NCBI GenBank assembly: GCA_026026165.1
Contig: JAPEUD010000004.1
Location: forward strand, 496,001 to 560,000
From: Sarea resinae
Taxonomy: Eukaryota
Reading direction: 5' to 3'
DNA length: 64,000 nt
Below the pieces are notes generated by a model that saw nothing but the letters and a program-made list of their open reading frames with translations, ran no database searches and was not told where the DNA came from. Shown piece by piece: positions 6,780 through 55,185 of this stretch. The position numbers were made by a program, and so were the translations under genes. The stretch's first letter is position 1. Each line of letters opens with the position of its first letter.

Positions 6780-7097
6780 AGTGTTACCTCCACCCTGGTC
6801 TACCACACTACACTATACTAGAACATCGATCCCCCCTTCTCTCTCTCTCTCTCTCTCTCCCTCTCCAATCTCTTTAATCTCTCTCTATTCATATATCAAT
6901 ATATCTACTACGTATCTACATCCCTTCTCGCGATGGCTTTGATCTCGCTCGTCGTCATTCCCCCATATACATATATCCGCATCTCGAATATCCACATCAC
7001 GCATCTCGAATCTCGAATCTCGAATATCGAAGATCGAAGATCGAATATCGAATATCGAATATCAAATATTCGCATCTCGAATCTCGACTGTCGAATA

Positions 7098-7142
<45 letters not shown>

Positions 7143-7605
7143 CATCCATCCTCGTTCCATCCTCACTCACTCACTCGGCTCGCTCACTCGCCTTGACTGG
7201 CGCTTTTCCCCCTACCCTTACCTGGTTTTGGTGTTGTCTTGTGTTGTCCTGTGATAGTGGATGTCAATGAGTGCATGTCAATGAGTGGAATGAGTAGGTG
7301 AGTGGATGTCATCAGATGGCAGTAGACAGCAGTAGATAGCAGTGGATAGCAGCAGACAGCAAAATAGTCCCTAAGTCCCTCAGTCAGCCCAACTCCATTC
7401 ACCTCCCTCCCTCCCTCCCTCCCTCCCTCCCTCCTACTCCTCTGATAATCTCATACTCCCCCAATTCCCTCCAACCCACCTATCCAACTCTCTTCAACCC
7501 CTTTAACTCCCTTCTACTCCCTCAGAGGGCATTAGAGGGCATCAGAGCACATCAGAAGCCGGTATAACTACTCTCCGTCACTCTGAATCTCTTGACTCAA
7601 GACTC

Positions 7606-7637
<32 letters not shown>

Positions 7638-8270
7638 TCAGCAGCAGCAGTAGTCAATAGTCAATAGTCAATAGTCAATAGTCAATACATCATGAATCAA
7701 GCGCTCGGCTCAGTTTACTTGATTGATTAGTCGATTCGATACGATAGCCAGCTGGAAACCGATAGAGTGAGAGAGTGATAGCTAGCTGGATAGTAGTAAT
7801 AGAGTGATATATGGATATGATGGGATGCGCTAGGATGGGATACAGACACGCCCTAGTGCCGTACCGTGTGTGTGTGTGTGTGTGTGTGGCGTGGAGTCGG
7901 ATCTTGACAGGTGCCCGCCCGGGTTAGACCTATGGTTGGTTCTCTCCAGTCAGTTCTCCAGCCAGTCCCTACAGTGGTCGTGACACGACACGACACGACA
8001 GAAACACCACAGCACACCACAGCTCCGACCATATCATACCATACCATACCATACCTACTCTAGTAGTTGGCTGTTGGCTGATATCTACTCTAGTAGTTGA
8101 CTGGTAGGTAGCTGAAACCCCTTGATGATCATCTACTAGAAAAAGAAACAGAAAAAGAAAAACAAACAGAACAGACGAATAGATCACGCGTAGAGTATGT
8201 AGTAGAAACGTTCAATGGCATCAATGCGCAGGCTAGATGGATGGATGGATGGATGGATGGATGGTTTCAC
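6780..8270. repeat. Microsatellite-rich, partly TpA-enriched island 1 between convergent SGF11 and RPL24
   Basis: Runs of (CT)n, (TCGAATA)n-like, (CCCGTAT)-like, (TCCC)n, (AGT)n next to (AGC)n, (AGTCAAT)n, (GT)n and (GGAT)n. No credible ORF. Confidence 0.85.
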
Positions 8271-8745
8271 GGCAGTTGCGTCTTCCCTTCAGGACGCTAT
8301 CACGAGCGGGCGGGGGCGAGAGGATGGCGCAATAGGATGATGGTATGGAATTCAAGTAGGTGGTTGCTGAAGATGCCTCGATTAGTCTCCGAGGGGTTGA
8401 GAAGAGTTGGGGACGCGTGCGTCGTGCGTTTGGTATAAGTGGGTGAGTGAGTGAGTTGGTGACTTGAGTCCCATGGGGGTAGATGCATGGTGGGGTCGGT
8501 TTGGCTTTTCTATCGAGAGGCTCTTTCGATCACATCTATCAAGACATAGCAACCGCTTCACTGATCTCACCATGACACACAAACACAAACAGAAGCACAA
8601 ACTTCTTCGCGCCATCCAGCCCCACATCTCAAATCAAAACGTGGTCAAAGGGGTCTTTCATTTCCATTTCCTTGTAGAGAATAAGAAAAACCAAGCCAGC
8701 ACACACGCGAGCACTCCGTCCCCTCCTATCTTATCCATTCAATCC

Positions 8746-9614
8746 TTAACGGCTCGTGGCAGCGGGCTTGACCGGCTTCCCCTTGGCGCCCTGCTTGCTC
8801 TGGATACGTGCCGTCTGGCCACGCGCAGCACCGGCCGCTCCCTTGGCTTTCTCCATCTTCTTCTTGCTCTCGAGCGTCGTCTTGCGCTCCTTGCCTTCCT
8901 TGATGGCGGCTTGGCGGGCGGCGGCGCGCGCTTCGGGGCGCTGGGCGCGGCGCTCCTTGATCACGTCGAGCGAGGCGCCGACGATGGCTCGTTGGGACTT
9001 GACCGTGCGGCGGGTGCGTTTCTTGGCGACTTCCTATTGGGGGGTGAAAAAGAGAATTTCAGCTATCGTTCATCTTGGCAGGCGTCGAAGTCAAAGCCAC
9101 AAGTCTCCATCCAGCTATCCATCCCTCTACCCGTTCATCCCTTCTCTTGTGCAATATGATCCCCAGATGGTAATGAAAAGGGTCCTCAGACTCACCTCAG
9201 AGATACCCTTCTTGTGTTGTCTTCGGTAAAGCGTAGTCCATGAGATACGACGAGGGTTCTTTCGCTGCAGGAACAAAGACTCCGTCTTGCCGTTTTGGAA
9301 TCGGAAGATTTTGCTGTCACCGCGGACGTAGAGCTTTCCCTGCACAGAAGCAAAACACCTCGAATCAGCCTTCCATTCCAGCGAAACATAGTCCCAGCAT
9401 ATGATCAAAGTCCGCCGTTCATCGTCGAATCAAGCCCCTCCCCCATCTATCCAATTCCACCAAAAGTCCAACCAAAGAAAAGCGGTAGGATGCGAACGGA
9501 CCTTGCCAGGATAGATTCTCTGCCCGGAGAACGTGTCTGTACGAAGAAAGCGTCAGTTTGGCATGCTCCAGATTTGACCGGCGGCAGGAGAGACCGACCG
9601 TCGTATGTCCTCAT
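8746..9614 (-). CDS. RPL24: 60S ribosomal protein L24 (eL24); exons 9614-9599, 9536-9502, 9339-9196, 9033-8746 (160 aa)
   Basis: Spliced product [77 protein letters not shown]...; all three junctions are GT-AG and in frame. Confidence 0.97.
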
Positions 9615-9634
9615 CGTGGCTGGTGTTGATGTCG

Positions 9635-15277: not shown

Positions 15278-18200
15278 ATGACCAAGATGGCGCAATTTGA
15301 GGAGCGCAGCCGCCCTAAGTCTGCTTTCGAGAGCGAGACTTTTGACCTGGACATGTCCCTCAAGGGTCCTCAGGCTGTTGGATCCATGTCAATCTCGCCA
15401 TGTGGAAGAGACGTTGTCCTTGCTTCGTGAGCCTCAACCCTCCCCAGTATTCCGTAAGAAGTTGACTGACTGGTTTCATCTAAAGCCGTGAAGGTCTGCA
15501 TGTCATCGATCTCGACTCCCCATACTCTCCCCCGCGTCATCTACCGCATCATACGCCCTGGGAAGTAGCTGACGTACAATGGTCGCCTTTTGCCTCCCGG
15601 CACTCGTGGGTCGTCAGCACATCTAATCAGAAAGCGCTTGTGTGGAATCTGGCCATGCCATCAGGCCCTTCGGCTATCGAACACGTCCTTCATGCGCACA
15701 GCCGAGCGATTACGGATATCAACTTCTCCGGCCACCATCCAGACAGCTTAGCAACCTGTGCGGTTGATAGTTTTGTACACTGCTGGGATTTACGGCATCC
15801 GGCAAGACCAGCCATCAGTTTCTGCGACTGGTTCGCCGGAGCTACACAAGTAAAGTGGAATAGGCAAGACTCGCATATCATTGCCTCGTCTCATGACAAA
15901 TATATCCGAATCTGGGATGACAGAAAAGGAGCTTATCCACTGCGATCAATAGAGGCCCACGGAACGAAAATCTATGGACTTGATTGGAACAGGACCAGAC
16001 CCACAGCTTTATTGACCTGTTCGTTGGATAAGACCGTCAAGTTTTGGGATTACTCGAACCCAGAAGATGTTCCGGAAAGGGTTATTAGGACGCCGTTCCC
16101 CGTTTGGAGGGCCAGACATACCCCTTTCGGATGGGGCCTTCTGGCAATGCCTCAGCGGGGTAATGGTGACTTACATCTGTATGATAGGCGACTGGGTCCG
16201 GGTATGAGTCGTGACGAAGCTGTCGCCCCTGTGCACAGCTTTGAAGGCCACCGGGATCAAGTCAAAGAATTTCTATGGAGAGCTCGAGGAACAATTGATG
16301 ATGGAATTGACAATCGAGAATTCCAGCTGGTCTCGTGGGGCATGGATCGTGAAGTTCGACTACATCGAATCAGCCCAGAGATCTTGAAGAGTGTTGGCTA
16401 TGAGAAGGGCAAGGAAGTACATGGAAGGCCACTTCTGACACGGAAAAATGCTATCTACAAGACATATCGTGACGAACAGCCAAAAGGTGATCAGGGTCGC
16501 CAACCACGCGACAGCCTGGGGCTCCCAAATGAACAGGGCGTCAATGGAAGTCCGCGAGGAGCTCTCACTGCCGGCATGAATAAGACTCCAATTCCCATCG
16601 CTCTTGGATGGGGGGAAGGTGGTTTTATGACCCCTCGAGATGGAATGCAAGGCAAACATGTAGCCAAAAAGGATGTCAATCCCATTGCATGGATGAAAGG
16701 GGTGAAAATCGGGAAAAGGGAAAGGGTCACCTTTAGTCGGCACGGCAGCCTGCCTGGACATGCATCGACACTTCTATCACCGCCTCTACGCGGGAGTGGC
16801 TCTTGGGAAGTTCCAGAGTCTTTAGGTGATGAAATAACACATGTCGGGGAGAAATTCAGCAAAGTCACATTCGACAGGGTTGATGTTTCAGATCGATTTG
16901 TGAGCGTCTCCATGAACGGTCCATGGGGTTCGGAATCCAAATTTGTGTATCTGAAGATGGACATAAAATTCCCAAAAGGTTATCCAGGGGCAATAGCGCC
17001 AGCATTCAAATTGGAGAAGACTTCTTCCATTTCGGAGGAGACAGTGGCGAAAATTTCCAAAGAGCTTCAGACAATTGCGGAGGCCTATGCCTCTAGAAGA
17101 CGAGGCTGTCTAGAAGCGATACTGCGCTATCTCTTGGGGGAGCGCAAATTAGAAGAAAGCACGGCTTGGCTTGGGGGAGACCACGATGGTGATGCTTTGA
17201 ATATCGAAGGACAGGCAAACGAGAGTTCGAGCGACGAAGAAGATGAGAGCGGGACCTTCCAAGATATGGAAATGAGTGGGACTGATATCCTTGTACCGCC
17301 GCGCACAAGTGCCAATGTCCCACGTGCCAGAGATCGTGGGGCTCGATTTTCCAATGATGGCAAGCTGATTTACTTCCTTCCGCCTAAAGAAGAGAGAGCC
17401 AGATCACTTCTTAGTACAATTACTTTGAGAGATGGCGATCGGTCATCTGCGGGTCCGAGGATATTTGAGGGTCTTGGACGTCTGCATACTGGCTCTCCTG
17501 GGCCAAAGCACAAGATCACCTCGATCGACGAAGAGGACGAGGATGAGTATGGATCCTCAGAAGAGTCACCCTCTTCTTCGAGCTCCTCGGATTCGGGCAG
17601 CAGCTCCAGCGGATTGTCGACACGATTCCAACCGCCCATCGCATGGCGTCGTAGCGGCCTTCGACTGCAGCGGATCCATTCGGCTGATCACTCCCAACGG
17701 TCGAGTGCTGGGACTGGGAATCTAAAGCAAGAATCTGGCAAGATAAAGTCATTACTTTCAGTCCGAAACTTCGAAGACCTTCTCCCAGCAAAGCGGTCTT
17801 TGGCAGAGGGATATGGTATTTTCGGCAATGGTCCTGATATCTGCGCACATAATGCTAAGGTCGCTTCTCATAACGGGTATCAGGATATTGCCGATGTGTG
17901 GGAGTTTCTTAAGCTGTTACTGTTCAACGAAGTTCCGCTAGACATAATGCCACAAACTCGACGGAAAGAGCATATTCTAGTCATCGCTAGACGTGCTTTG
18001 AGGAAAGTCCAAAGAAGAGACAGCGGCTTGGACCTAGCTTTTGACGAGCTGCCACACATCTCTGAGACCAATCTAACAGGTCGCGTCAAATGGGGTCGAC
18101 ATCCTCTGGGTGGTGCTTGGCTTGTCGATGCACTTTTCAAACATTTCGAGCAGCTTGCGGATGTACAGATGCTTGCAATGTTGTCTTGCGTTCTCAGTGA

Positions 18201-19767
18201 GCCAGCAGCAAAGGAAGGCGCCTCCGCATCCCTTCAGCAGCTGGAGCAACGGGAGATACCAATGACGTTGAAGAGTCCTGCTTTTTCTGTCGATTACTTC
18301 CCATCAGAAGAAATCGCGTGGAGCCTCTATCAGCATGCAGCTCCAATACCACCCAGGATATCTCACTCTTCTATTGCAATTCATGGCTCTACCAATTCTT
18401 CCAACGGTCCGTGGGGCAGCGATCCAACAACTCCGTACTCGACGGGTACCACGCCTCCTCATGTGTACAAGGCTCGTCGCGCGAGTGCGGATCCCAGTCC
18501 GCATACTCAAAGCCTCTCAACGTCCCCTGAAAACCATCACGCTCGTCGCGCGAACTCAAATCTAGCAAGTGTTTTTGCTGCGTCCTTTTCACGCCCCTTC
18601 TCCGGAACAGTTTCATCTACATCTCCACCGTCTAATACCCGAAAGAGGCCGAGTCCAGTAGAACACATGCTCGGCGCACTGCCGTCCGGCGCTGTGACTT
18701 GGGGTGCCAACACCATATTAGGAAGTGGAGCTGGCACCAGAAGCAGCGCTCCCATCTCAAGCGAGGCACAATCTCCAGAAGGCTCCGTTACTGAAGATGA
18801 CGACCAGCCCAACACACCCAAACAAAACTTTATCAGCGTGAAACTCAAGAATCAAAATCTCTTCGACCAAGAAGGCCACGCCAGCACCCCGCTCCTCTCG
18901 CCCGATCTATCTGCCCGCTATAAAGCCTACCGCGAATGCTACGCCCATCTGCTTCACATCTGGAATCTCCCGCTCACCAGATGTGAGATTCTCAAATTTA
19001 ATGGTCTCGTTTCGTACTTCCCCGCTCCTCGTTCTCGGAAATCCGCCTCCCTCATTTCTCTCGGCAAAAAGCGCCGCCATGAATCCGCAGGAGGCCGTCT
19101 ATCCAACGGCGCCTCATCCACCACTATCAACACCATCAGTGCCGACGACACCGCCACAGGCTCCGCGACCGCCATCGACGATACCTATGATGACGACGAA
19201 GACGTCTCCGACACCGAAGGCACCTTCACCGGCCTCACACTTACAGGTCACTGCCGCACCTGTGGCCGCCTTCTCCGACGCACACGGCACAACAACCACG
19301 GCGCTTCTTCGTCGGAGCCAACACGGGCTTTTAACACGGCCTCGGGGCGCTGTACTTCCTGTTCGCGCTCCCAGCACCAACTTGCCTGCGTCATCTGCAA
19401 CGAAGTCATCCACGGCCTTTACGCGCCCTGTCTTGGGTGCGGTCACATCAGTCACGCCGACTGCCATGCGCTGTGGTACGCGCAGTTCGATGGCGAAAGT
19501 CCCGATGGCGGCGGCAGCGACGCAGAATGCGTCACCGGGTGTGGTTGTCTCTGCGCGCAACGCGCGACTGCTGTGGGCGGCCGGGTTGAGGGTTTGCTTA
19601 CTGGTGGTGGTGGCGGCATCGACGGTGCAAAGCTGGGCCCAGTCAGGGACTGGGACGAGGATGCCTGGGAGGAGATTGGCGGCGTTGCGTTTGGCGCCGC
19701 TACTACCCTCGGCAGAGGCGTGGGCGCGGGTCTGAGTCGCGGCCTTTTTGTTGCTCCGGAGAAATAA
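15278..19767 (+). CDS. MTC5: SEACAT/GATOR2 subunit Mtc5/Sea3 (WDR59): WD40 repeats, RWD domain, C-terminal RING; exons 15278-15426, 15486-19767 (~1476 aa)
   Basis: Intron 15427-15485 joins ...SISPCGRDVVLAS|REGLHVIDLD. WD40 motifs (HSRAITDINF, CAVDSFVHCWD, PVWRARHTPFG), RWD FPKGYP, and RING CVIC...CLGCGHISHADC...CVTGCGCLC. Alternative ATG at 15287. Confidence 0.92.
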
Positions 19768-20079: not shown

Positions 20080-20526
20080 GCTACTAGATACCACTAGATG
20101 TTCTCGTTCTCTCTCTACTTATCCTCTCTATCTTCCTATCTTCTTATCTTCCTATCTCTTAATCTCTCTATCCACATATCTCTTTAATCCTCCTATCTAA
20201 AGCAAGCAAAACAAACCCGTAACCGAATTTCTATGAACCTAGTCAAGAACAAATATACTCCGTCTACCCCCCCACCCCCCCCCCCCGTCTCTATCCCTAT
20301 CCATATCTCTATCCCTTACCCCCTATCTACCTCCACCAAACCGAAAAGCCGAAAAACGGAAACAGAAGGGGAAACGGAAACGGAAACAGAAACAGAAACA
20401 GAAATATCCTTATCCTATAGCACACGCATGAGCTTTGCTTTTTTCCCTCGATTTCTTCTTTTTTTCTTCTTCTCCTCTGCTTGCTGGCTGACTAGGTAGG
20501 TGGGTAGATAGGTAGGTAGGTAAGGT

Positions 20527-20557
<31 letters not shown>

Positions 20558-21330
20558 TAGGTAAGAGGCAAGTAGTGTAGGTAGGGAAGTTCGCAGGTAG
20601 GTAGACTAGTAGGTTAGTAGGTTAGTTAGTACCTAAGTAGTATATCAGTATAGTAGTATAGCATAGTTTCCTTTCCCTTCTTCACCTTTCTCTTATTTAC
20701 CTACCTTTCTCTCTCTTTACTCTACCTTACTCAAGCTTACCTTACTCTACCTTATGTACCCTACCTAGGGTGAGGTTCAAACTAGTAGGTAAGGTAGGTA
20801 GGTAGGTAGAGAGATAGATAGATAGGTAGAGAGAGAGAGAGGTAGAGTAGGTAGAGTTAACACGCGCGCCATTCCTGTGTTCCTAATTCATACGTTTCTA
20901 GAGGCGGGAGGCGAGAGGCAGGAGGAGACAGGAAACAGAAGACAGAAGATAGGAGACAAGAGGTAGGAGAAAGACGTTCAAGGTATTATATAAAGCAAGT
21001 AACAAAAGTGAGTGAATAAGAGTAAGGTAAGCAAGTGACTGACTGAGTGACTGAGTGACTGAGTGACTGAGGTAAACACGTATCATACTGTATCGATAGC
21101 CACCTATCTTACTAGCTACTTACCTAGCCAAGGTACAGTGAAGTAAGGTAAGGTACGTTAAAAGTAAGGTGTAGTAAGGTGAGGTAAGTTAAGGTAAGAT
21201 AAGGTAAAGTAATGTAAGGTGAGGTAAGGTAAAGTCTGCTAAGATCTGCTAACAAGCCAACTACTCTGACACACTAAACCACTACCACTACCACTATCAC
21301 TATCACGAACACTGAAGCTGAAGCTGACGT
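20080..21330. repeat. TpA-rich microsatellite island 2 between convergent MTC5 and the cyclin gene
   Basis: (GGTA)n, (GTAAG)n, (GATA)n, (AG)n, (GAAACA/G)n and (GTGACTGA)n; very few CA/TG dinucleotides in 20490-20860. Confidence 0.9.
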
Positions 21331-21956: not shown

Positions 21957-24255
21957 TCAGAGAACACCCTCCCACATACCGGGACCAGGTCTCCGATCCC
22001 TCATCGCCAAAACCCTCGCGGCTTCCTCGCCACAGCACGCCCTCTTCCTGCCCATATGCTTCAGCAGCGGGAGGCGATGCGGCGACATGTGGCTCGGCGA
22101 CTGGAGAGCCTTGGCGTTGCACGAACGATTGAGCGCGTCGACGTCGACAGGTTCTTGAAGCAAGAAAGATTGCGCTGCGCACGGATCGGCTGAGACGGAT
22201 GTGAGGTTGTTATTCTCGTTCCGTGCCTTCAGCGCCATGAGCTGGCGAACCTGCTGCTGCATATTGGCTTCGTCCGAGCAGCGCGATCGCTTGCGGCCCG
22301 CTTGGCAGGACAACGACGTGTATGTCTGTGGTGACATGCTGTGATAATTCAAGAGCTCTTTCAGTCCGCATGGAGGCTCGCGAGATGCGGGCCGAGCCAT
22401 CGTTTCTCGTGGAGTGTTCAACGAGAAGTTGGAAAAGTCAGGAATGGAGCCAGCTGACAGCGCATAAGACTCTGGGGAGGATGAAAGTGCACCGGCATTC
22501 GAGTACGCCACACCTTCGATCAGGGGACCATTGACTGGCGCCGCATTTTCCTTCATCGTCGAAGTCAACAACTTTGCGTTTCGACGAGTCGCCTGCATAG
22601 CCAGATTGGCTGGATTCGGCGCACATATCGAAGACGACGTTGAAGAGATCGACGACGAACGCGACGATCTGGAGCTGTCCGAGACCATCGAATCGGGTGA
22701 GGACGCCAGTGACGAAGAGCGAGCAAGCGACGAACGACGACCAGAACTCTGGTAGCTATCCAACGCAGTCGGCTTCGCATATGGTGGCGGGTTCCACTGA
22801 TCGCAGGTGATGCGCGTCAGGCAAGTATTCTGAGCTTGGACCATAGCTGCCCCCATGGATGATCTCCTCGAACAAAAGCTCCCGGCACCCGCTGCAGGGG
22901 TGCTGAAGCCTCCAGAAGGAGTCATCTGTGGGGTTGGCAAGGGTCCAGCTCGCGAAAGACCTGGAAGGATCTGTGGTTGTGGCTGAGGTTCCAATACTCG
23001 GGGAATGCAGTTGGACGGGGTTGGCGTCTGGTCGTTGGATCCTGGTTTGGAGGCGCAGTCGGGCCGATATGAAAGACGTGGTGTCGAGGATTCCGCGCCC
23101 GACATTGAAGACCGCAAATCGGCATCCGTAGACATTGCAGAGTCAAAGCTGACGTTATCCAGATCCGGCGTCAAGATGGGGATAACTGTACGCCAGTCAC
23201 ACTTGCGGCCGGGGCATGCGGTAGCTGCTGTAGGCGCTGGTGGCCGAGTTGAAGAGGTGCATTTGAGGACGACATCTGTCCACCTTTGAAAAACCGCCTC
23301 AGAGATGTGCAACCGCCAGTTGACAGCAGAGAGAAAGGTCATTTCATTTGCGTTAATCTCTTGAGCATTGAGACCAGATATCTTGCTCCAGGCTCGTGCC
23401 GAGTAGTTTCGGTCTTGGAGGTATTTTGAGGCGAGTATCAAGGCCGAGAGAAACATTCTCCGCCCGCATTGAAGTGCTCGTAGGGATTGCTCGTCTTCGG
23501 GCTGCTCCATCGTAAAATCGTACTTCGGAACATGGGACTTTATTAGTATTAAATAATATAACGCCACCTGGAGGGTAGAGTAGCTGGTCCTTGAACGCCG
23601 AAGCGTCTCTTGGATAAACGTCCTCAAGGGTAGAACGCCCTTGCCGCCGAGAGCGGCATCACTTCGACAAGTCATAACGGAAAGGGGCCATATAGCCTCA
23701 ACAATCTGAGCAGCAGAATCTGCACGTAACAACATTTAGCGAGCGAACATGTCTTGATCCTGGGATGTCCTTACCGACGAGACCGTCGACAAAGTTGACC
23801 TTTCGATCACTTTGTCGAATTAATGGCGGCGGGACGCGTGCACAACCTGCTTTGGGACAGCCACTTGGGATGTCGTTCTGGACTTCAGGATAGGTTCTTC
23901 TGGGATGCTGCCGAAGTTCCGAAGCAACCCTGCAATCTCCATTACCAAGTGCATTGAGGGCAGTCCGCGAAGTGGGAAATGAGATGCCTTCAAGACCTAG
24001 ATCCTTCGGAGCAGTTGGCTGCTCGCGAAAACACTCGGTGTGCTCTACCTCTGGGACGACGTTCAGAGAACTGGCGACGGACGAGGAAGACGAGGTAACA
24101 GAGCTCTGAGAAGAGAATCCATCAACGGAGAAGATTGATGACGAAGAGGAGGAAGCGGAGGAAGGGGTCGAAGAGGAGTAAGGGTGATTATTTTGATAGG
24201 TTTGCTTCGACGAGTAGAAGGAACTTGGGGTCGGAAGTGCCCCGAATTCCATCAT
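21957..24255 (-). CDS. PCL5: Pho85-type cyclin, Pcl5/Pas1-like; exons 24255-23775, 23719-21957 (~747 aa)
   Basis: Intron 23774-23720 gives DRKVNFVDGLV-D-SAAQIVEAIWP. Cyclin box LPLRTFIQETLRRSRTSYSTLQVALYYL...RRMFLSALILASKYLQDRNYSARAWSKISGL...EMTFLSAVNWRLHI. Subfamily assignment is from recall. Confidence 0.85.
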
Positions 24256-31380: not shown

Positions 31381-33219
31381 ATGTCGTTGCTTCGAGAAGC
31401 GAAGCGTGTGGCCGCAGAGTTCGACTACCCGGCGGAGGAGGTGCGAAAAAGTGTCCAGGAGTTTCTCGTGCAGATGGGTCAGTCTCGGAAAGATGCAGAG
31501 ATCTGTTTTCCACAGCGCTGACGTTGGAGAGATAGACGAGGGTCTACAAAAGCCTGGCCAGACGCTGAATCAAATTCCCACCTACGTGACAGCAGTGCCC
31601 AATGGGACCGAGAAGGTGAGGTCTATCGATCAAATGGCTTGAATGACGGCTCATAACGAATCCAGGGTGTCTATCTGGCTGTTGACCTCGGCGGCACGAA
31701 TTTCCGCGTCTGCTCCGTCCGACTACACGGAAACACGACGTTTTCGATGGCACAGACGAAAGTCGCCATCCCTCGCGAACTCATGGTTGCAGAGACGGCA
31801 GAAGAGCTCTTTGCATTTTTGGCGAAACAAATCGAGAAATTCATCCAAGTCCACCACAGTGACCACTTCGAGGCGCACGTCCGACGAAGGCAGACGATGA
31901 GCGAGCCCGAGGGCTACAAGGAGGAGCAGATATTCAGCCTGGGCTTCACGTTCAGTTTTCCCATCAACCAGATCGGTATCAACCGGGGAACCCTCATCCG
32001 ATGGACCAAGGGCTTCAACATCAAGGATGCCATCGGGAAGGACGTCTGCGCGCTGCTCCAAACGGAGATCGACAAGCTGCGTCTCCCCGTCAAAGTCGCG
32101 GCTCTCGTCAACGACACGGTGGGCACGCTCATGGCGCGCTCATACACATCGCCCGGCAAGACGGGCACTTTGCTCGGTGCCATCTTCGGCACGGGCACCA
32201 ACGGCGCCTACATGGAAAAGCTCGACCGAATCACCAAACTCGAGAGCATGGGCGGCGACGCATATGACAAGTCCACGGGCGAAATGATCGTCAACACCGA
32301 ATGGGGCTCCTTTGACAACCATCTCAAAGTCTTGCCGTCGACACCCTACGACGCCGACCTCGACCGCGAGAGCATCAACCCGGGGATCCAGATGTTCGAG
32401 AAACGGGTGTCGGGCATGTTCCTGGGCGAGATCCTCCGGCGCGCGATCCTGTCGCTCGTCAACAACCCGTCGATCGAGCTCTTCAAGGACGAGAACTCGT
32501 CGGAGAACGACATGCGCTCGACGACGTCCATCGCACCCGAATCGCCCCTCTACAGCATGTGGGGCCTCGACACGTCGTTGCTTTCGGTCATCCGTGGCGA
32601 CACGAGCGCGACGCTGAGCGTGACCCGCCAGGCGCTGGAGCGCGACCTGCTCATCAACGCGCCCAGCACCGAAGACGCCGTCGCGGTGAAAGAAATGACG
32701 GTCGCCATCGGGCGACGCGCAGCCCGTCTATCGGCGGTGCCCATTGGTGCCATCGTCCTGTCCTCGGGCCGACTCGGCACCTCTCCCTCGGACGCGAGCA
32801 CGACGACAACGACGACGACGCAACCGCCGTCGACCATGTCGTCGATCTCGTCCTCTCTCCAAGCGGGTGACGTGTCGGCGGCGGCATCGACGGCCGCAAC
32901 GGCCATCTCGTCATCTCTGCCATCGCTGACGCCGCCCCCGCCCGGCCACGCCGCCGGCACGGACGCGTCGTCGTCGGGCGTGTCCGAGGCCGACGTCGTC
33001 GACATCGGCGTCGACGGCTCCCTGGTCGAGTTCTACCCGGGCTTCGAGGACGACCTGCGCGAGGCGCTGCGCGAGGTGCCGGGCATTGGCGCCGCGGGCG
33101 AGCAGAGGATCCGGATCGGTATCGCCAAGGACGGCAGCGGCGTCGGCGCGGCGCTGATCGCGCTGGTGGCCAGGAAGGTGGAGCCGCCGGCTGTGTTCGA
33201 GGATGACGACGAGGAGTAG
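31381..33219 (+). CDS. GLK1: Glucokinase (hexokinase family, GlkA/Glk1 type); exons 31381-31477, 31536-31615, 31666-33219 (576 aa from the AUG)
   Basis: LAVDLGGTNFRV, LGFTFSFP, LIRWTKGF, VNDTVGT, IFGTGTNGAY, NTEWGSFD, FEKRVSGMFLGE, GVDGS and DGSGVGAA motifs; both introns in frame. Confidence 0.95.
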
Positions 33220-33379: not shown

Positions 33380-34454
33380 AAGGTGTTTGAGATATATACG
33401 AGAAACGTCTATATCTTATGATCTCTCTCTAGAAGAATCTTCTTGCATGTCCCTGTTGACGTTCCTGTGACTTGAGATAGTGTTTTAGGATGAATACTAA
33501 AGATCTGTATATCTATCCCTGCCTATGCCTATGCCTATGCCTATATCTCTATCTATATCTATAACATCTTTCCTTGTGTGTCTGTGTGCCTCTGCGTCCT
33601 CTTTGCTGTGACCAGACTAGGCTATCTTGTAGAAAGAAGGAGAGAGAAGGCAAGGCGTTTAGAACAGAGACTAATCTCTCTCTATCTCTCTCTCTCTATC
33701 TCTCTCTTCTGTCTTTTCTTATATGTATCTAGTTAAACGTTCTTCTACTAGTAAGTAAGTACAGTCATTTATAGTAAAAGAAGTAAGAAGAAGAAGAAGG
33801 TAAGAAAGAAGGTGTTAAAAATAATAATAATATATCTCTAAGAAAAGAAAAACATAATAATAAGCCCTAGTAAATAGGTTGATAAGACTTATTCTTTTCT
33901 ATACACTATCTAAGAAAAAGATAGTACTATAAGTCTAGCTTATCTACCTCGGTAGGTTTTATATATATACCTCTTTAGTCTTTACCTTACTTTATATAGT
34001 GTAGCTATAGCGCTCCTTAGATTTTATATCTTTTTTAGAGATAGGTACCTAGGCAGGCTATAGCGTATATTAAGACTAACTAAGGCTAGGATAAAGATAT
34101 ATACCTACCTACCTAAGGTACTTTACCTCTGTATATTTAGAGTAGATTACTACTTTAAGGTTTTTATATCTGTATCTAGCTCTATTATCTAGCTTTATAT
34201 CTAGCTCTACTTATTTACTTACTTTTTACCTTTTCTCTTAACCTCTTTAGTACTTAACCTCTATAATATAGCACTATAGCACTAAACTACTCTAATTACT
34301 ATTACTACTACTACTACTACTACACTATAGCTACTTCTTCTCTAGAAAGGAACTTACCTCTAATTTCTTACACTTACTATAAGATAATATATTCTATCTA
34401 CCTAAGAGTCTTAGCTAGAACTAAAACTCCTAATTAGTTCTTCTTCTTCTTCTT

Positions 34455-34485
<31 letters not shown>

Positions 34486-34607
34486 GAATGAGCTTATTTA
34501 TAATTACATTTATAACTCTACTACTAACACTACTAAGGATAATAATAGTTCTAGTCAATATTTAGCTATAAACTTATACTCTCTCTCTTTTCTCTCTCTC
34601 TATCTAT

Positions 34608-34644
<37 letters not shown>

Positions 34645-35010
34645 AGACCTAAGTATCTACCTAGTGTATGATCTAGAAAGTTATATCAAACTAAGTAGAG
34701 CAAATATAAGGATTATTAGGTAAGCTAGAGAAGGTAGGTATAAAGTACAAACCTAGCTAGATAGGTAGATAGATAGATAAGCTAGGTAAGGCTAGAGTAA
34801 TTCTTTTTTCTTTCTCTTTAGAATAGCTTATAGCAGGTAGGTAGGAACAGGTTTTGCCTGTTTACGATATATACCTTATAAACATTGGATCGGAAAAGAA
34901 AGGAAGAGAAAGGAAAAGAAGAGTGAAAGAAGAGTAGTATCATAGTGTGTGTGTTAAGAGTGAAGAGAGACAAAGGAAGGTAGAAAGAAGAGGTAGAGGT
35001 CTAGAGAGAA
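33380..35010. repeat. Strongly AT/TpA-rich island 3 between convergent glucokinase and C2H2 genes
   Basis: 33720-34830 almost lacks CA and TG. Contains (TTC)n at ~34438-34483, (CT)n, (TAC)n and (GATA)n. No ORF is listed between 33220 and 35025. Confidence 0.92.
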
Positions 35011-35681: not shown

Positions 35682-37067
35682 TCACATCTCGCCGTTGCGG
35701 GAATGCCCATTGAGGATAGGACTCGTGTCCGAGCGATCGCTAGCCGCGAGGTCGTGCCCGTCGGGTGGAGACAGTGATCGTTCTGACTTCTCCGACGATT
35801 GGGCTTTTCCACAGCCCTTGACGAGGATATGTCTCTGCAAAGTTCATCAGCACATGGCCAGATTTCCATCGAAAAAGATACACACCTTCAGAGCGTCTTT
35901 TCTAGAAAAGCTCTTGTCGCAATGGCCGCACGGGAAGGGCTTCACAGCCAGATGAATCCGTTTATGCCGCTTCAAGTCGTGGTTGCGATTGAAGCTTTGC
36001 GGGCATTGATCGCACTTGAACGGTCGATCCGTGATGGGCTGCTGGGGCTGGTGGTGACCACCATATAGTTGCGGCATGCCGGAATGTGCAGCGTTGTAGC
36101 TAGAGATCAAACTACCGTGCATGTTGCCCATCAGAGCCATTTGATTGCCCGGCTGGTGCAGATTCGACATCACGGGCGCCCCCATCGCCGGGAGAGAATA
36201 TCCTCCCAGAGGACGTGAGAAGTGTTGGAGGTGTTGGTGTGGTGAGGGTTGTAGCATGGGTGGCTGGCCGCTGCTGGGAGATATCCTGGATGACTGCGAC
36301 TGATGGCTCGGCGAATGGGCTGGGTAGGATGGATATGCCTGCTGCGAGGCCGAGGAGGAGCTGTAGTAAGACGAAGCCGTCTGAGGTCGCTGCATCTGGT
36401 ACGATTCTGACGTGGAAATGGGTGATGACTGTGTATTTCCCGACGAGGATGTGTGACCGCTCATCAATGCATTTGCCATGGCTTGCTGTCCGGGAAAGGC
36501 GGGGGCGCTCGAAGGGGCAGACATGGAGATTGAAGTAGGAAACGGCGGGAGGCTGAGGTCATACGGCGGAGGAGGGAGAGTATCCGCGGTTGTTGGGGAG
36601 TGGTTGTGATTTCGTAGGAGCGAAGGCGAATACATTCCTCTCTGAGATAGGAGAGGGTTGAGAGATCCAATGCTGTTGTATGTGGGTGCGGATGAGGCGC
36701 TAAGACCATATGCTGCCGTGCTTTGAGCCGGAGGTGCCCAGATGCCGCCAGGTGCATATGGTGGCACGCCTTGGGTTGAAGCGGAGCTTCCGCTATTGAT
36801 GCCAGAGGACATGGGGCTCAGACCCTCGCCGTTGATCTGCGAGGAACGTGTTAGATTGCTTCCGACACTGCTGCGACTAGTATTTACCGGCGAAACCTGG
36901 GTGGTGCTGACGCTCGCGAAAGAAGGGTATTTCCCCAGTGGAGGAGGCGGTAGTTCAAAGGAAGGGAGGTTTGATGCTGCCGATCGTCGAGCGGAGAAGC
37001 TGGACGGAGCACCAAATGGATCTGTCCCTGGACCCATCTGAGAAGGTTGGAGCAGTACAGTAGCCAC
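35682..37067 (-). CDS. C2H2 zinc-finger transcription factor (two C-terminal fingers); exons 37067 (GUG; first AUG 37037)-35886, 35834-35682
   Basis: DRPFKCDQCPQSFNRNHDLKRHKRIHLAVKPFPCGHCDKSFSRKDALK|RHILVKGC after removing intron 35885-35835. Ser/Pro-rich activation-like N-terminus. Confidence 0.92.
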
Positions 37068-38844
37068 GGTGGCGGTTGTCGTGAGGTCTGCGGGAAGGCT
37101 TGAGGAATGCCCCCAACGTCGAGAAACGTTGGAAGGATAGAGAGTGGAATGCGTAGAGGTTGCGATGCGTGTGAAATGCGCTATGGGCTCGAGGATATCA
37201 CGGTCAATATGACCGATCGGCGTCTATAGAGCGATCGGCCAGTAATGCACAGCGTCCAAGACAACACGGTGATGATGGCCTGATGAGATGAAAATCTGAA
37301 TTCATCATTCGAGTCAATATATTTCCGACGGGATGCACGGGGCGAGAAAGGGAAGGAGCGTACGGTTTTGGCAGAATATGTCGGATTCCGCAGTGCAGGT
37401 AACCGAGAGCGACGAGAGACAATATTTGTTCGGTCGCTCAGTACATTCGCAGTGCGAGCAGAGTCCTCTGATGCTTGATGAGGTTGACAGCAATGGGTCG
37501 ACGGCACGAACGGGTCGACGTGAGGGCGGGGGAAGGGATTCAAATGGTCGCTGTTGATGGATGCCCTCGTCGGGAAGTCAAGCGACGATCAGTACGCTTA
37601 CAGCACCCTCTCCAGGATCCGGCGTGAGCGATTCCTGGTCGGTTGAGCTCGTGGTTTCGTTAATCGAGTCGACTAGAGCCACACAGCAACAACGAGATTC
37701 GCGAGGTGGAGAATGGACAGTCGACGCTTCTGTCTCTCGCATGAATGTTGCCCGGTGCAGAAAAATGCAATGACGGTCCGTCGCAACGACGAAGAGGAGG
37801 ATGATGGTGGATGATGTGAAGGTTGAGTAGAGCGAGTAAGTCGAGTCGAGTCTCCCTGAAAACCGGGACGGCGCAGGGTGTCTGATCTGGCGCTTTTAGA
37901 GGCGGATGGCGGGCTCTCCAGGCTGCTGGCTTGGGTGCTTGCTGGGGGGGGGTGCTCTCGCTCTGCTTGGGCTTCACACTGCTCTGCTCGTCGGCTTACT
38001 TGGGATCAGAGGGGTCGGGTGGCTCCCCGTCGCGTATATGTATCCCCGACTAGTGCTGGAACTCGCGTGGTCGATTCGTCGCAGGGATTTCTCGCCATGC
38101 GACGGGGAAAGATCTGGATCCAGCCCGGGGGAGGGGGGCCCGTCGCCTGGGTTCAGTGAAAAGGCACTAGAGAAGTAGCCAAGTCGGGGTTTGGGGGTGG
38201 TAGGATGAAGGGTGGGAAGGGGCAAGGGATGGGAGGCGAGAGGGGGGAGGGGGGAGGGGCAAGGGGGACGGGCGAGGAGGGCCGAGAGGAGACCATGGAC
38301 TAGGACCCGACTAGGATCCGACTGGGGGGAGGGGGCATGTCGCTCGGAGGAGGGAGAGGAAGAGGAAAAGGCAAAGGAAGGAATGGGAGAAGACGGGATG
38401 GAGCGAGATGGGCCGATCGAGACGCCCCATGCTCGAATGCCTCCTCTCGCTCGACTCTTCTGTTTACCTATCGGGAGTAGTGGGAGCGTGAGGATTCGAT
38501 GCGCAGGCGGTCCGGACGTCAGTCGTCGTCGGAGGTAATAATGGTCCGGCAGACACCATCATCATCATGATCAGAGCAAGGTACTAGGGATGTGAGTAAG
38601 TGAGTGAGTGAGTGAGTGATGGATGTGATGTGTGTGTAAATTGGCTGCTCGTTTGTGTCTCTGCTCCTCTCATCTCTCTTTGGCCCGTCTTACGAGAGAT
38701 GATCGGACGAGCTTGGAGGTACGGGATGCCGATACCGTCAGTACCTCTCCAACCGCTTGGTGGCTCGGACGGATCGATGTAATATTACAATATTACACAG
38801 GGCAGGAAGCGCGCTCGGATCAGTTAGAGGTTAGAGAGGAGATT

Positions 38845-38889
38845 GGGGGGGGTGGTGGTGGTGGTGGTGGTGGTGGTGGTGGTGGTGGG
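38845..38889. repeat. (GGT)n microsatellite preceded by a G run
   Basis: Directly visible tandem repeat. Confidence 0.95.
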
Positions 38890-44800: not shown

Positions 44801-44839
44801 CCAACCGGAAAGAATGGCAATCTTCTGAGCATGCCTTCC

Positions 44840-45964: not shown

Positions 45965-47345
45965 TGAGCCCACGTCGCACGAGAGGTATGGCGGTTGACG
46001 GCTTGATTAAGGTATCTACTGAACCTTACGAAGACTCTCTGTGCTCGACGCTTGCGCGTCAAATACAAATCAAAGATGAGGAGGGCACAGGCCGGTTATC
46101 AGAAAGCTGTGGGAACATTCATGGTAATGTTGGATTCAAGCGGAGATAAGCACACGTCAGGTAGCGTTGTGATGTAAGCAGTAATCGTGAGGCTCGTATA
46201 GCCCCGCCGGGCCCTAGCACCGAGCGTGCCTGAAGCCTCCTGAAGCCTGCTCCGGCTGGGGTGCCGTGAATGGAAGCTCCAATTGCTCTTTTCGGAAAAC
46301 CATGAAGGATCTGGATATCTAGTCCGTCTGCCGCTCTTACTGGAAGCCTATAGTACATGTCGTTATGGCTCATTGGGTGCAACAGCCACGAATACAAATA
46401 CAACAAGAACGGCAGCAGGAGGCGTCGAGGCGGATCCGATCCCTGCAGAAAATGGGATGTGGTCCGAGCAGCCATGTGCCGTGCTCTTGCAGCGGCGTCT
46501 CCGTCGGCCGGATGTGGACGATGGGGGATTGGGCCTCATGGCTACGGTGACAATACGGATCGAGCTCCACGATAAATCGGTATCAATCAAGCTTTCTCAA
46601 CATGGCCTGCCAGCTGCGCGACGCATGAATGTCTACTTTCGGCTGCGCCTTGATGAGGGTTGAAGATGGCCAGCTATCTCTCTGCTTGCCTGCCTCACCT
46701 CACTGTCTGCCTACCCACTGGCCTACCTACCTGCCGACCTACGTGAAGGATGGATGTAGAGTGAGATTGGACGTGCACGCCCCTCGCGGTGATTGTTTTC
46801 GCATGTCGTACCGCATGAGAGACGGGAAGTCTTCAGACGAAAGCTGCAGTGTTGGATCCATTGCACGCGATTTCACGTGGTGAGTTGGCTTTGAGTAGCA
46901 GAGTATGTTGTACTCCGGAGTATTCTCCGTACGTCGATCAATCTCCACCGTTATCACCAACCACGCTTTACCCTTTTGGGCGATGAGGTCAACAGCCCGA
47001 GCGCACGGGAGGGTTGCCAGCTTCACAGCTTCACTTGAAATCCATCCATGCCAGCATCAAAGAGACTGCAGTGTTGACGGCAACAAAGACGACGACGACG
47101 ACGACGACGACAAAGACATTGATCTGGCGCTTACTGTCGGTGCTGAATTACTGACAAATCCTTCTGTAATCTGACTGATGCGCTCGCTGTCTTTCTCTTT
47201 CGCAACGCTTGATCTTCTTCTGAATAGTTGCTTGTGACCGAATTGTATGATCCTGTAACTCTAGTGCCGACTGCAAGATCGCCACTGTTGCTGTTTCTGT
47301 TTCCATTCCCTTCATCGCACATCCACTCAATACATAGACTCCAGC

Positions 47346-48614
47346 ATGCCAGAACAGCGCAATATCGTCGTCATCGGCGGTGCCTTTAGCGGCATCGCCA
47401 TAGCTCACAACCTCCTCCGCCACGTCCTCCCAGAACTCGACGTGCATGCGACATCGACGTCAGGGAACAGCTACAGAGTCACCCTCATCTCGCCGTCGAC
47501 TCACTTCTACTGGAAGATCGGAGCGCCTCGCGCCCTCATCTCCGCCGACGCACTGCCGCGCGAGAAGACGTTCATGCCCATCGCCGACGGCTTCAAAGAG
47601 TACCCGTCCGCGCTCTACGAATTCATCCATGGCACCGTCACCAAGCTCGATCCAGACACGCACCAATTGACCATCAAACCCGAGGATGGTCCCACCGCCA
47701 ACGCTTATACTCTCCCCTACCACGCCGTCATTCTCGCCACGGGCCGCCAATCCCACTCTCCCCTCTTCAGCCTCCACGGGCCGCACACCCGGACCGTCGC
47801 CGCCCTGGAGGAAATGCACTCCCGCCTGCCGACCGCGCAGTCAATCGTCGTAGCAGGCGGCGGCGCGGCGGGCGTCGAGACCGCCGGCGAGCTCGGCTCC
47901 GCCTTTGGGAAGAAAAAGGACATTTTGCTGCTCTCGGGGTCATCGCGGCTGCTGCCGTCGCTGCGTGCCGACATTGGCGCGCGCGCAGAGAAATACCTGC
48001 GCGACTTGGGTGTCGAAGTCGTGCACGGGGTCCGCGTCACCTCTGTTTCGTCGCAAACGACGCTTCACCTCGACGACTCCACCACCCGGTCCACAGACGT
48101 CTACATCGACGCCACGGGCGGCGACCCCAACACGTCGTTCCTGCCGCCCGCCTGGCTCGAGCCCAACGGCACCATCACCACGTCGCCGACCACGCTGCGC
48201 GTCACGCCGGCCTTTCCCGGCACGCTCGCCTACGCCCTCGGCGACGTGACGAGCTTCTCCAAGGGCTCGATCCTGGACGTGTGGGAGCCGGTGCCGGCGC
48301 TGACGGCCTCGCTCGAGCACGACCTGTACGCGGCCGAAGACGCGCTCGACCGGCTGCCGGACCAACATGTCGGTCAAGACGGCACGGACAAGAAAGACGC
48401 CGCCCATGCTAGCGCTAGTGCCCGCGTCGCGCCCGCCGAGATCCTGTACGCCCAGGCCAAGTCCGATACCATGATCGTGCCCGTCGGCCGCAGCAAGGGC
48501 GTCGGCGTCGCCTTTGGTTGGTGGTTGCCTAGTCTGCTGATCTGGTGGGTCAAGGGCCGGACGTTTATGGCCGAGAAGATGGCCGAGACGGTCATGGGGG
48601 ATAAGTTCCGTTGA
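47346..48614 (+). CDS. AIF/AMID (FSP1)-like FAD/NAD(P)H-dependent oxidoreductase, intronless (422 aa)
   Basis: N-terminal IVVIGGAFSG, VILATG, second Rossmann motif IVVAGGGAAGVETAGE, YALGD, and C-terminal VPVGRSKGVG...WWVKGR. Confidence 0.9.
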   Translation: MPEQRNIVVIGGAFSGIAIAHNLLRHVLPELDVHATSTSGNSYRVTLISPSTHFYWKIGAPRALISADALPREKTFMPIADGFKEYPSALYEFIHGTVTKLDPDTHQLTIKPEDGPTANAYTLPYHAVILATGRQSHSPLFSLHGPHTRTVAALEEMHSRLPTAQSIVVAGGGAAGVETAGELGSAFGKKKDILLLSGSSRLLPSLRADIGARAEKYLRDLGVEVVHGVRVTSVSSQTTLHLDDSTTRSTDVYIDATGGDPNTSFLPPAWLEPNGTITTSPTTLRVTPAFPGTLAYALGDVTSFSKGSILDVWEPVPALTASLEHDLYAAEDALDRLPDQHVGQDGTDKKDAAHASASARVAPAEILYAQAKSDTMIVPVGRSKGVGVAFGWWLPSLLIWWVKGRTFMAEKMAETVMGDKFR

Positions 48615-48619
48615 AGCAG

Positions 48620-49640
48620 AGAAGTGCTGCTAGTGAAGTAAGAGAAGTAAGAGAAGAGAAGAGAAGAGAGAAGAAGAGCAGACCAGGGCTACTAGCAAAG
48701 AGTAGACAAGAGAAAAGCGAAGTAGAGCAGAGCATGGCTACTAGAGAAGAGAAGACAATGCAAGAGAAGAAAAGGAACGGTTCTTCCGCAAAATCGGCAT
48801 CATGTAATCAATCTTTTCTGTTCTATTCTGTTCTACTCTATTCTTTTTCTTCTCTTCCTCTACAAGGCTTAATTAAGGACGTATTTAGTCTATAATACTA
48901 GAAACTATATACTGTATTCAAGACCGTGTATATGTAGTGTAGAATAGGCTAGGACAGGACAGAATACTATGTATTAGTTATAAAAGCACACCTCCTTTCT
49001 ATCTTTACACTGTACAGACAAAGCACGCAAGCACAGCGCCAGTTAACAAGCGCTGTGTAGTACTCAAACTTTGAGATAGTCGCGGAGGAGTTAAAACCAG
49101 GTCGAGGAGGAGTTGTTTAAACTCTTATGACCTGCTAAAGTCAAGTTTGCCTTCTATAGAAAGAGAGAGATCTACGTACTTTATAGTTATATCTTAGTTA
49201 CTGTTTCTAGTCTTTAGATTTAAGTAATTTGTTTGTGGTTCTAGTTCTAGGTTCTAGTACTAGTTCTAGCTATAGGATCTACTCTTTACTTATATCTCTA
49301 TCTCTTCTAATCTACTCCTTTCTCTTCTTTCTCTATCTCTCTTCTCTCTTTTCCTTTTAAGGCTAAATTTCTAGGAACCCCTTAAGCCTAAACCCTTTAG
49401 GCTTTACTTGACCTACTATAATTTTCTAAGAATAAAAAAAGAAAAGGAGAAGAAAGTAAGTAGGTACTCTTATAATTAGTAGAAGAAGAGTTATATTAGG
49501 CTAGTTTAAGAGAGAGAGAGAGAGTAGATTAAGAGGAAAGAGATAGTAGATTAAAGAGTTTACCTGTAGGCTTTAGAGGTATTAGTTAGTGACTAGAAGA
49601 GGATTCTCTTTTTCTCTGTACTTTCTTCTTCTCTTTTACT

Positions 49641-49701
<61 letters not shown>

Positions 49702-50300
49702 ACTCTCTACACTCTCTATTTCTATACCTCTACCTTTCTATCTCTATACACTTCTATACACCTTTCTACCTCTTTCTCTCTATCTCTTTACTAATACTAA
49801 TCACTTTCTTATAAGAGAAGGAGCGCTACGCTATAATACACTACACTAAACTACGCTACACTACACTACCTTACCTCTATATAAAGTTAGTAGATAGATA
49901 GATAGAAACCTAGATAGATAGATAGACATATAAGCTAGGTTCTAGTAGTCCCTTTATTAGAGAGAGAGATAGCGCACATGAGAACTATATAATCTATCTA
50001 TTCTACTAAACCTTATAAGATAACAAAATACCTTTCTACTCTTCTTTTTTCCTCCTTTTCGATAAGGCGCGCCGCTCTATAGTAGGTACCTTACCTACCT
50101 AGGCAAATAAGCATAGCCTAGACAAGCCAAGTGGTTATCGTAGTAGTACTTTTCAGATAGCTTATATACCTTAAGAACAGGTTTGCCTGCCTACCTTACC
50201 TATTTACTTAGTAGGTAGGTAGTCCTTGGATTTCCTTTTTCCTTCTGATACTAATATCTCCTCTCCTTTTTTCTAGTGGTATACTCACTTACTCCGCTTC
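48620..50300. repeat. TpA-rich microsatellite island 4 between convergent AIF-like and kinase genes
   Basis: (AGAAG)n, (TTCTAG)n, long (CT)n at ~49645-49698, (ACTAC)n, (GATA)n and (TACC)n; CA/TG depleted in 49150-50230. Confidence 0.92.
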
Positions 50301-55184: not shown

Positions 55185-55185
55185 T

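Follow-up and report, generated by a model that had tools for sequence, protein, structure and literature searches.

The window examined here, a 64-kb stretch of the fungus Sarea resinae (contig JAPEUD010000004.1, positions 496,001 to 560,000), is intron-bearing ascomycete DNA with a GC content of 0.52. It holds four pairs of convergent genes (SGF11/RPL24, MTC5-like/PCL5-like, GLK1/C2H2 and AIF-like/GIN4-like), and their spacers enclose low-complexity islands, numbered 1 to 4 from left to right. Islands 2-4 behave like DNA altered by repeat-induced point mutation (RIP). Context-specific C-to-T change at CpA and CpG on both strands explains them, the direction being read from composition and not from an ancestral alignment. 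The account that we tentatively favour, with confidence somewhat short of even, is that terminator DNA lying between convergent genes, once expanded by slippage, was mutated where it stands by RIP-type machinery, with its own self-similar repeats as the probable trigger. Heavy C-to-T scars on spacers that look like ordinary single-copy, repeat-rich DNA hint that gene layout helps choose the mutator's targets. The window results come from this one stretch and its four convergent junctions (n = 4).

Three convergent spacers carry a RIP-like signature

Island 2 (20080..21330, core ~20450-21300), in the MTC5-like/PCL5-like spacer, is RIP-like at an intermediate level. Island 3 (33380..35010, core ~33700-34850), between GLK1 and the C2H2 gene, is the strongest, and island 4 (48620..50300, core ~49150-50250), between the AIF-like and GIN4-like genes, is strong. 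An earlier note on this DNA had described them as rich in TA and poor in CA/TG, and dinucleotide counts with a masking control bear this out. CA+TG counts are 91, 72 and 87 in islands 2, 3 and 4 against AC+GT counts of 170, 161 and 176 (p 1e-6 to 5e-9), and TA counts are 142, 251 and 214 against AT counts of 58, 136 and 99. DNA was classed as RIP-mutated when TpA/ApT was high and the substrate index, (CpA+TpG)/(ApC+GpT), was below 0.7; the three islands have TpA/ApT of 2.45, 1.85 and 2.16 and substrate indices of 0.54, 0.45 and 0.49. Their GC content is 0.33-0.43. The cores are more extreme: island 2 reaches a TpA/ApT of 3.72, a substrate index of 0.47 and an observed/expected (O/E) CpG ratio of 0.29, island 3 a GC content of 0.30, a substrate index of 0.24 and a CpG O/E of 0.15, and island 4 a substrate index of 0.31 and a CpG O/E of 0.30.

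Before A, the fraction C/(C+T) drops to 0.23, 0.06 and 0.10 in cores 2, 3 and 4, compared with 0.51-0.67 in the nine non-convergent stretches. Before T it is unchanged in the cores (0.54-0.64), so CpT is spared, and both CA/AC and TG/GT are lowered, indicating that both strands are affected. Masking of tandem repeats leaves the signal in place (CA/AC 0.62, 0.27 and 0.36 for islands 2, 3 and 4).

The islands lie past 3'-UTR-like (untranslated region) zones on both sides. Edge fits place the right edge of island 2 at 21280, the edges of island 3 at 33520 (graded) and 34920, and those of island 4 at 48960 (graded) and 50300 (sharp). A sharp-boundary model is worse by 5.2 and 2.8 log units at the left edges of islands 3 and 4. 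Near their right edges these two islands have in common a word of ~15 nt with one indel (34846-34862 and 50174-50189), a short inverted repeat that retains CA and TG and that, by a rough estimate, could be due to chance.

Island 1 has the repeats but lacks the mutation

Island 1 (6780..8270), in the SGF11/RPL24 spacer, is microsatellite-dense without CpA depletion. The earlier note had included it as the mildest of four RIP-like islands, a reading that the counts contradict: CA+TG is 191 against 184 for AC+GT (p 0.76), TA is 112 against 129 for AT, TpA/ApT is 0.87, the substrate index is 1.04, and the RIP rule is passed in 0 of 40 windows. It is the most microsatellite-dense stretch (49% masked by TRF) with a mild local dip in CA/(CA+TA) to a minimum of 0.24, and 10 of its 13 perfect simple sequence repeats (SSRs) retain CA, TG or CG. 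These repeats comprise 13 different motifs with few purine/pyrimidine (R/Y) tracts, and thus offer less self-similarity.

C-to-T mutation at CpA and CpG explains islands 2-4

Seven mutation models were simulated forward on three kinds of starting DNA and compared by dinucleotide distance to the cores. C-to-T mutation at CpA and CpG fits best, reducing the distance from 0.24-0.29 in unmutated DNA to 0.03-0.04. Poorer fits are given by CpA only (0.07-0.09), CpA+CpT (0.12-0.13), all C (0.13-0.15) and CpG only (0.20-0.23). As the poorest model, CpG-methylation decay alone was rejected; strand-asymmetric transcription-coupled deamination was also rejected, since 13 gene ends show no consistent sense-strand bias. 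The accessible text of PMC5496416 gives the RIP preference of Trichoderma reesei as CpA~CpG above CpT>CpC. The best-fit model equals this preference, which we count as support for RIP-type machinery.

The microsatellites carry the same imprint. Of the 23 perfect SSRs in islands 2-4, three contain CA, TG or CG, whereas the figure for non-coding DNA elsewhere is 39 of 44 (p 1e-9). By inspection, the island motifs ACCT, AGAT, ACT and AAGT are one-step CpA-to-TpA products of AGGC, ATCC, ACC/AGC and ACTC, which occur outside. This makeup points to native spacer DNA as the starting material. Mismatches between tandem units supply 25 informative sites, six of them in islands 2-4, too few for mutation direction.

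R/Y tracts of length at least 10 make up 7, 13, 18 and 24% of islands 1-4 against 4% of other spacers, rising roughly with the mutation level. C-to-T mutation leaves the purine/pyrimidine pattern unchanged, so a second process is needed to enrich these tracts. Because the spacers are 3-4 times the control length and rich in R/Y tracts, a repeat-accumulation step is involved, and RIP may still have been triggered by homology. In genes, synonymous sites retain C before A at 0.68-0.76. The value is still 0.68 in the last 150 codons, and the mutator therefore barely leaks into genes.

Strong islands are confined to convergent spacers

The earlier note placed such islands at convergent junctions and nowhere else. 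This stands for strong islands: a stricter rule picks exactly 20300-21200, 33600-35000 and 48800-50400 in the window, and 27 kb of non-convergent spacer hold no strong island. It is too broad for weak TA-rich spots. Under a looser rule, the PCL5/GLK1 spacer has 4 passing windows of 132, the C2H2/CmcJ spacer 1 of 145 and the open end of the window 8 of 105. A weak spot near 25.9 kb has TA 41 against AT 18 without loss of CA or CG. The same scan upholds the statement that tandem and divergent spacers, three of 5-8 kb among them, are free of comparable islands, even where they are rich in microsatellites.

Stretches were ranked by the minimum of CA/(CA+TA) in 300-bp windows, a statistic chosen post hoc. 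The four convergent spacers occupy ranks 1-4 of 13 (0.01, 0.03, 0.10 and 0.24 versus 0.34-0.56), and strong islands occur in 3 of 4 convergent spacers versus 0 of 9 other stretches. The corresponding probabilities, post hoc and with n = 4, are 1/715 (~0.001) when all four are counted, 0.014 when only the top three are, and 0.006 when weighted by length. The claim of a C-to-T process targeted by gene orientation holds for the C-to-T change and its restriction to convergent spacers within the window; orientation itself is no more than a possible trigger, one of the four junctions being unmutated. AT richness alone does not yield the pattern, because the AT-rich single-terminator zone at 56250-57200 (GC 0.40) has CA/TG in excess, 124 versus 94.

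The convergent spacers measure 2.2-2.8 kb and are 17-41% repeat-masked, compared with at most 9% for the eight closed non-convergent spacers and 17% for the open end. Neighbouring island centres are separated by 13.2, 13.5 and 15.3 kb. The window thereby presents AT-rich convergent sites at a spacing of 10-15 kb, largely because of where the convergent pairs lie.

The pattern is not general to fungal terminators

As controls we used 80 glucokinase loci from metagenomes, of which the 48 that reach 4 kb or more (617 kb in all) were scanned for islands. Two loci contain one. The first belongs to an AT-rich genome (L014), and the second (L046:4412-4950) is a 540-bp RIP-saturated non-autonomous DNA element with 25-nt terminal inverted repeats (TIRs; 96%) that serves as a positive control. 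Unlike islands 2-4, this element has sharp edges and is not built of microsatellites. Spacers were compared in the 28 loci with a length of 8 kb or more (three near-duplicates dropped), which gave 77 spacers by a crude open reading frame caller that misses three window genes. None of the 18 control convergent spacers falls below 0.15 (lowest 0.28) versus 3 of 4 in the window; their median length is 635 bp. As none shows an island, the pattern is not general to fungal terminators. A tblastn search found no control locus that retained the island-flanking partner of GLK1.

No transposon features were found in the islands

No transposon remnant was recognisable to the earlier note, and the tests concur in finding no domains, no terminal repeats longer than 11 nt and no homology between islands. 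Pairwise, transition-tolerant alignment of the islands returns low-complexity matches only, and for this reason the idea that they form one hairpin or one family was rejected. Within the window there is no duplication of roughly 400 bp or more. Comparison of 24 read-through frames (stops as X) with transposon families gave no hit and three weak unrelated matches (E 0.013-0.14). Edge zones have no common word longer than 11 nt, the longest being 9-11 nt and of low complexity, and inverted repeats within islands are tracts of CT/AG type only, although heavy decay could erase terminal repeats. The quasi-palindrome of island 2 (score 189 versus a null of 87+/-20) is a CT-tract against an AG-tract. 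Membership among transposon relics fails on the features tested.

A search for runs that contain this DNA listed one sequencing run and no RNA run. The read-depth test on islands 3 and 4 used that run, which is possibly the window's own source and so not independent; the test sees copies at least 80% alike, and the repeat filter skipped part of island 3. Among the matches listed, island 3 is covered by one contig of depth 408 that runs from GLK1 to 34426, and island 4 by contigs of depth 389 (48161-49631) and 353 (49987-51000). Flank depth is 287-364, so islands 3 and 4 are at near single-copy depth, with extra depth only over microsatellites among the matches listed. The run's contigs, which drop rare variants, contain no variants. 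One further contig (run X1), at the organism's own depth (355), partly aligns, with several gaps, to both 38300 and 50104-50150, which suggests a similar low-complexity stretch elsewhere in the genome.

A proposed two-step origin for the islands

In the favoured account both steps would be located by gene orientation. First, in this lineage, promoter-free DNA past two facing terminators would have swelled to 1.2-1.7 kb of simple repeats and R/Y tracts; from the composition observed we infer slippage and relaxed constraint. Second, a RIP-type cytosine-methyltransferase pathway (RID and/or DIM-2 with trimethylated lysine 9 of histone H3, H3K9me3) would have turned CpA/CpG into TpA/TpG on both strands of native single-copy DNA across many sexual cycles; the signature is observed, and from it we infer the enzyme. 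TA-rich RIP product attracts heterochromatin in Neurospora, and the islands may likewise draw further heterochromatin once mutated. Transcribed 3' UTRs and gene bodies would set their limits, and island 1 would be a junction past the first step with little of the second. Most likely the trigger lies in the repeats, which are dense, self-similar and closely spaced; read-through, supercoiling or cohesin at the junction may contribute. According to the accessible part of 10.1101/2021.04.05.438447, repeats set near one another in Neurospora lead DIM-2 to mutate neighbouring non-repetitive DNA.

Several results weigh against this account, beginning with the small number of junctions. Island 1 is the richest in repeats yet the least mutated, which neither a simple repeat model nor a simple position model predicts. 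Outside the convergent spacers, all six 300-bp windows in which tandem repeats make up 30% or more hold C/(C+T) before A at 0.57-0.88, and a perfect (CCA)n array of 75 bp (63260-63335) has stayed intact. Conversely, mutation is complete in some island windows that have 0% repeat. Coding (transposon-like) and spacer starting DNA both reach a distance of 0.03 in the simulations, so dinucleotides do not separate them, and the right edges of islands 2-4 also fit sharp boundaries. In convergent spacers, windows with at least 30% tandem repeat (n = 15) have a mean C/(C+T) before A of 0.29, and the repeat-rich stretch at 38.1-39.6 kb retains CA, TG and CG. Because repeat windows outside are unmutated and repeat-free island windows are mutated, repeat density alone is insufficient and a role for position is favoured, but the repeat patches outside are of small extent and probably belong to regulatory DNA.

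Position could act more directly. Convergent read-through, polymerase stalling, supercoiling or cohesin may themselves nucleate H3K9me3 and 5-methylcytosine, with DIM-2/RID producing C-to-T change independently of homology and the repeats arising as a by-product. The ranking and the 3 of 4 versus 0 of 9 count above favour such a trigger, as do the unmutated state of repeat-dense promoter-side DNA, the position of the islands beyond both 3'-UTR-like zones with graded left edges in islands 3 and 4, and a 13-15 kb spacing like that of cohesin sites. We nevertheless hold it to be the less probable trigger, and an unlikely one, since the RPL24 junction is spared, the 18 control convergent spacers are free of islands, no consistent strand asymmetry occurs downstream of stops, and literature searches returned no precedent. 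Neurospora disiRNA (dicer-independent small interfering RNA) loci, in the accessible text of PMC3764098, lack a RIP footprint (RIP index 1.13 vs 1.11) and have their methylation peak in promoter regions. The broadest form of the idea, that in this resin-dwelling lineage RIP machinery mutates single-copy DNA without duplication wherever transcription units end head-on and so writes topological or transcriptional stress at these terminators, as cohesin or loop-anchor sites, into TA-rich heterochromatin seeds every 13-15 kb, is equally doubtful. If true, RIP would build chromosome architecture and not only kill transposons, and GC-enriched gene ends would border the seeds.

The islands might alternatively be small transposons, such as miniature inverted-repeat transposable elements, solo long terminal repeats (LTRs) or truncated elements, that were RIP-saturated, then overgrown by microsatellites beyond recognition, and that survived only where they disturbed no promoter. 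This mechanism is known and has a high prior. It would suit spacers of 2.2-2.8 kb against the 635-bp control median and the possibility of sharp right edges; coding-like starting DNA fits the spectrum equally, and saturating RIP hides homology from a read-depth test that sees at least 80% likeness in islands 3 and 4 only. The true relic L046 argues otherwise, as the islands have none of its features (25-nt TIRs, sharp edges and freedom from microsatellites). Neither homology between islands under transition-tolerant alignment nor a domain remnant was found, and there is no relic in the 27 kb of non-convergent spacer. Moreover, Cryptococcus T1, and Hermes in yeast, avoid convergent spacers according to the accessible part of 10.1101/2022.06.10.495668. 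We rate a transposon origin as improbable, on a par with the direct trigger.

An account without a targeted mutator, in which genome-wide AT or CpR-to-TpR drift and slippage of TA-containing repeats show only in unconstrained terminator DNA, or in which the placement is small-number chance, is very unlikely. In its favour, terminator regions are generally AT-rich, n is 4, the statistic was picked after the data were seen and slippage amplifies any motif present. Against it stand the excess of CA/TG in the AT-rich zone at 56250-57200, a depletion that depends on context (CpT is spared) and outlasts repeat masking, synonymous C before A that stays at 0.68-0.76, and 7-kb spacers without drift.

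Gene content of the window

Genes were called by Pfam and NCBIfam profile scans of 146, 105 and 7 frames together with a codon model. The 13 genes found define four convergent, five tandem and three divergent spacers and an open 5.6-kb end. From left to right, a lipase and SGF11 (+) face RPL24, gene X and a ubiquitin-conjugating enzyme (-), a WD40-RWD-RING gene (+) faces a cyclin (-), glucokinase (+) faces the C2H2 and CmcJ-like genes (-), and a Pyr_redox gene (+) faces the kinase-KA1 and Zn-cluster-like genes (-). Family scans and codon model agree with the four tail-to-tail pairs of the earlier note. Its names MTC5, PCL5 and GIN4 are its own, and the family scan bears out the domains of all three.

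At junction 1, SGF11 (4990..6390, +, a stop-to-stop frame; PF08209, E 1e-11) lies to the left and the 3' exons of RPL24 (8746..9429, -; PF01246, E 4e-19; last exon 8749-9033) to the right. Multi-exon gene X (10400-13160, -) encodes a Lys/Asp/Gln-rich product that has a hydrophobic stretch at its N-terminus and matches no family in Pfam or NCBIfam. The ubiquitin-conjugating enzyme (13825-14443, -; PF00179) is UBC13-like on inspection, and a small + strand frame that faces it (13533-13688) has no family match. Junction 2 is flanked on the left by the MTC5-like WD40-RWD-RING protein (15484..19767, +; PF00400, PF05773, PF17120) and on the right by the PCL5-like cyclin (21957..24288, -; PF08613, E 2e-6), whose 5' end is approximate.

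The GLK1 main exon (31657..33219, +; PF00349/PF03727) lies left of junction 3, and the C2H2 zinc-finger gene (35847..37223, -; PF00096, PF13465), possibly with an extra small 3' exon, lies right of it. A CmcJ/NvfI family oxidoreductase (44840-46006, -; NF041278, E 2e-25) is divergent from the AIF2-like FAD/NAD(P) oxidoreductase (47349..48614, +; PF07992, E 2e-29) left of junction 4. Homologues of the latter bear the name apoptosis-inducing factor 2, the closest named ones being from Candelina, Candelaria and Pycnora (46-48% identity). Right of junction 4 is the GIN4-like kinase with a fungal KA1 domain (51373..55196, -; PF00069, PF16797), followed in the listed order by a Cys-rich putative transcription factor (Zn-cluster-like, -). 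This terminal gene and gene X were called by codon model and inspection only. Within each of two species, Candelaria pacifica (P0004/P0126) and Pycnora praestabilis (P0005/P0144), homologues of the AIF-like and glucokinase genes occur on same-sized contigs, which suggests conserved linkage.

Long GC-rich, gene-free spacers of 5.6-7.6 kb (24300-31270, 37230-44839 and 58400-64000) extend upstream of the genes for the cyclin, the C2H2 protein and the putative Zn-cluster protein and contain many GTAC/TACT-type words and microsatellites. Family, tRNA and Rfam scans found no additional Pfam-recognisable gene, tRNA or Rfam RNA in the long spacers.

A GC-rich halo (GC up to 0.70, CpG O/E 1.3-1.5) surrounds the AT-rich islands in the 3' halves of the genes that flank junctions 2-4, for example at 19000-19767, 32500-33219 and 47750-48614, and could stem from GC-biased gene conversion near the junctions. 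Synonymous GC rises toward the stop in 5 of 7 convergent-gene exons (p<0.05) versus 0 of 4 tandem genes (group p 0.02). We treat this rise as a lead only, because that of GLK1 (+0.10) does not go beyond one standard deviation from the value for 39 homologues (+0.02 +/- 0.08).

Comparison with known systems

The choice of targets by RIP has long been debated, with current models invoking DNA pairing and supercoiling. A genome with RIP-type scars at convergent terminators that are single-copy would offer a natural test of topology or transcription, instead of homology, as the trigger, and if these do act, RIP indices are no proof of past transposons. Like canonical RID-dependent RIP relics such as L046:4412-4950, the islands show TpA gain and CpA/TpG loss on both strands, near saturation. 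They differ in that no TIR, LTR, coding remnant or second copy was found, in their partly graded edges, in their strong R/Y tracts and microsatellites, and in a placement tied to gene orientation.

In Neurospora, RIP through DIM-5/DIM-2 beside repeats likewise produces C-to-T change in non-repetitive DNA, and DIM-2-dependent RIP has been modelled, via heterochromatin, as a response to local supercoiling (accessible parts of 10.1101/2021.04.05.438447 and 10.64898/2026.08.11.744009). The trigger described there is a gene-sized duplication, whereas none is evident in the islands.

The earlier note drew on Neurospora disiRNA loci as a precedent. Convergent transcription there does trigger DNA methylation at disiRNA loci (DLDM), recruiting H3K9me3 and DIM-2 methylation at non-repetitive genic loci. 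In the accessible text of PMC3764098 and PMC5131781, however, DLDM requires overlapping antisense transcription and ERI-1, is transient, peaks in promoter regions and leaves a normal RIP index. With their strong RIP indices and their position at 3' junctions, islands 2-4 do not share the index and peak features of DLDM, which cut against the analogy. Literature searches, in which subscription journals were thinly covered, turned up no paper that links RIP signatures to convergent junctions, nor do the accessible parts of PMC12543289, PMC10246852, PMC7923544 and PMC10512326 make that link; Sarea resinae is absent from the 12 supplement files, of 19, that were searched for PMC12543289.

The closest counterpart is T. 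reesei QM6a. The accessible text of PMC5496416 describes ~2,300 intergenic AT-rich blocks of 0.5-3 kb, ~13 kb or ~five genes apart, nearly all RIPCAL-positive; the analogy with convergent intergenic regions of yeast led to the proposal that they are cohesin sites. AT content defines those blocks, and RIP acting on duplicated sequences is the explanation given for them, whereas the islands are microsatellite-built and convergent-only; the passage on convergence concerns yeast, and the parts examined contain no orientation test for T. reesei. The islands share with these blocks a RIP signature (CpA~CpG) and a 13-15 kb spacing, and the idea of short RIP-positive AT-rich blocks as cohesin or loop sites becomes checkable from one public assembly.

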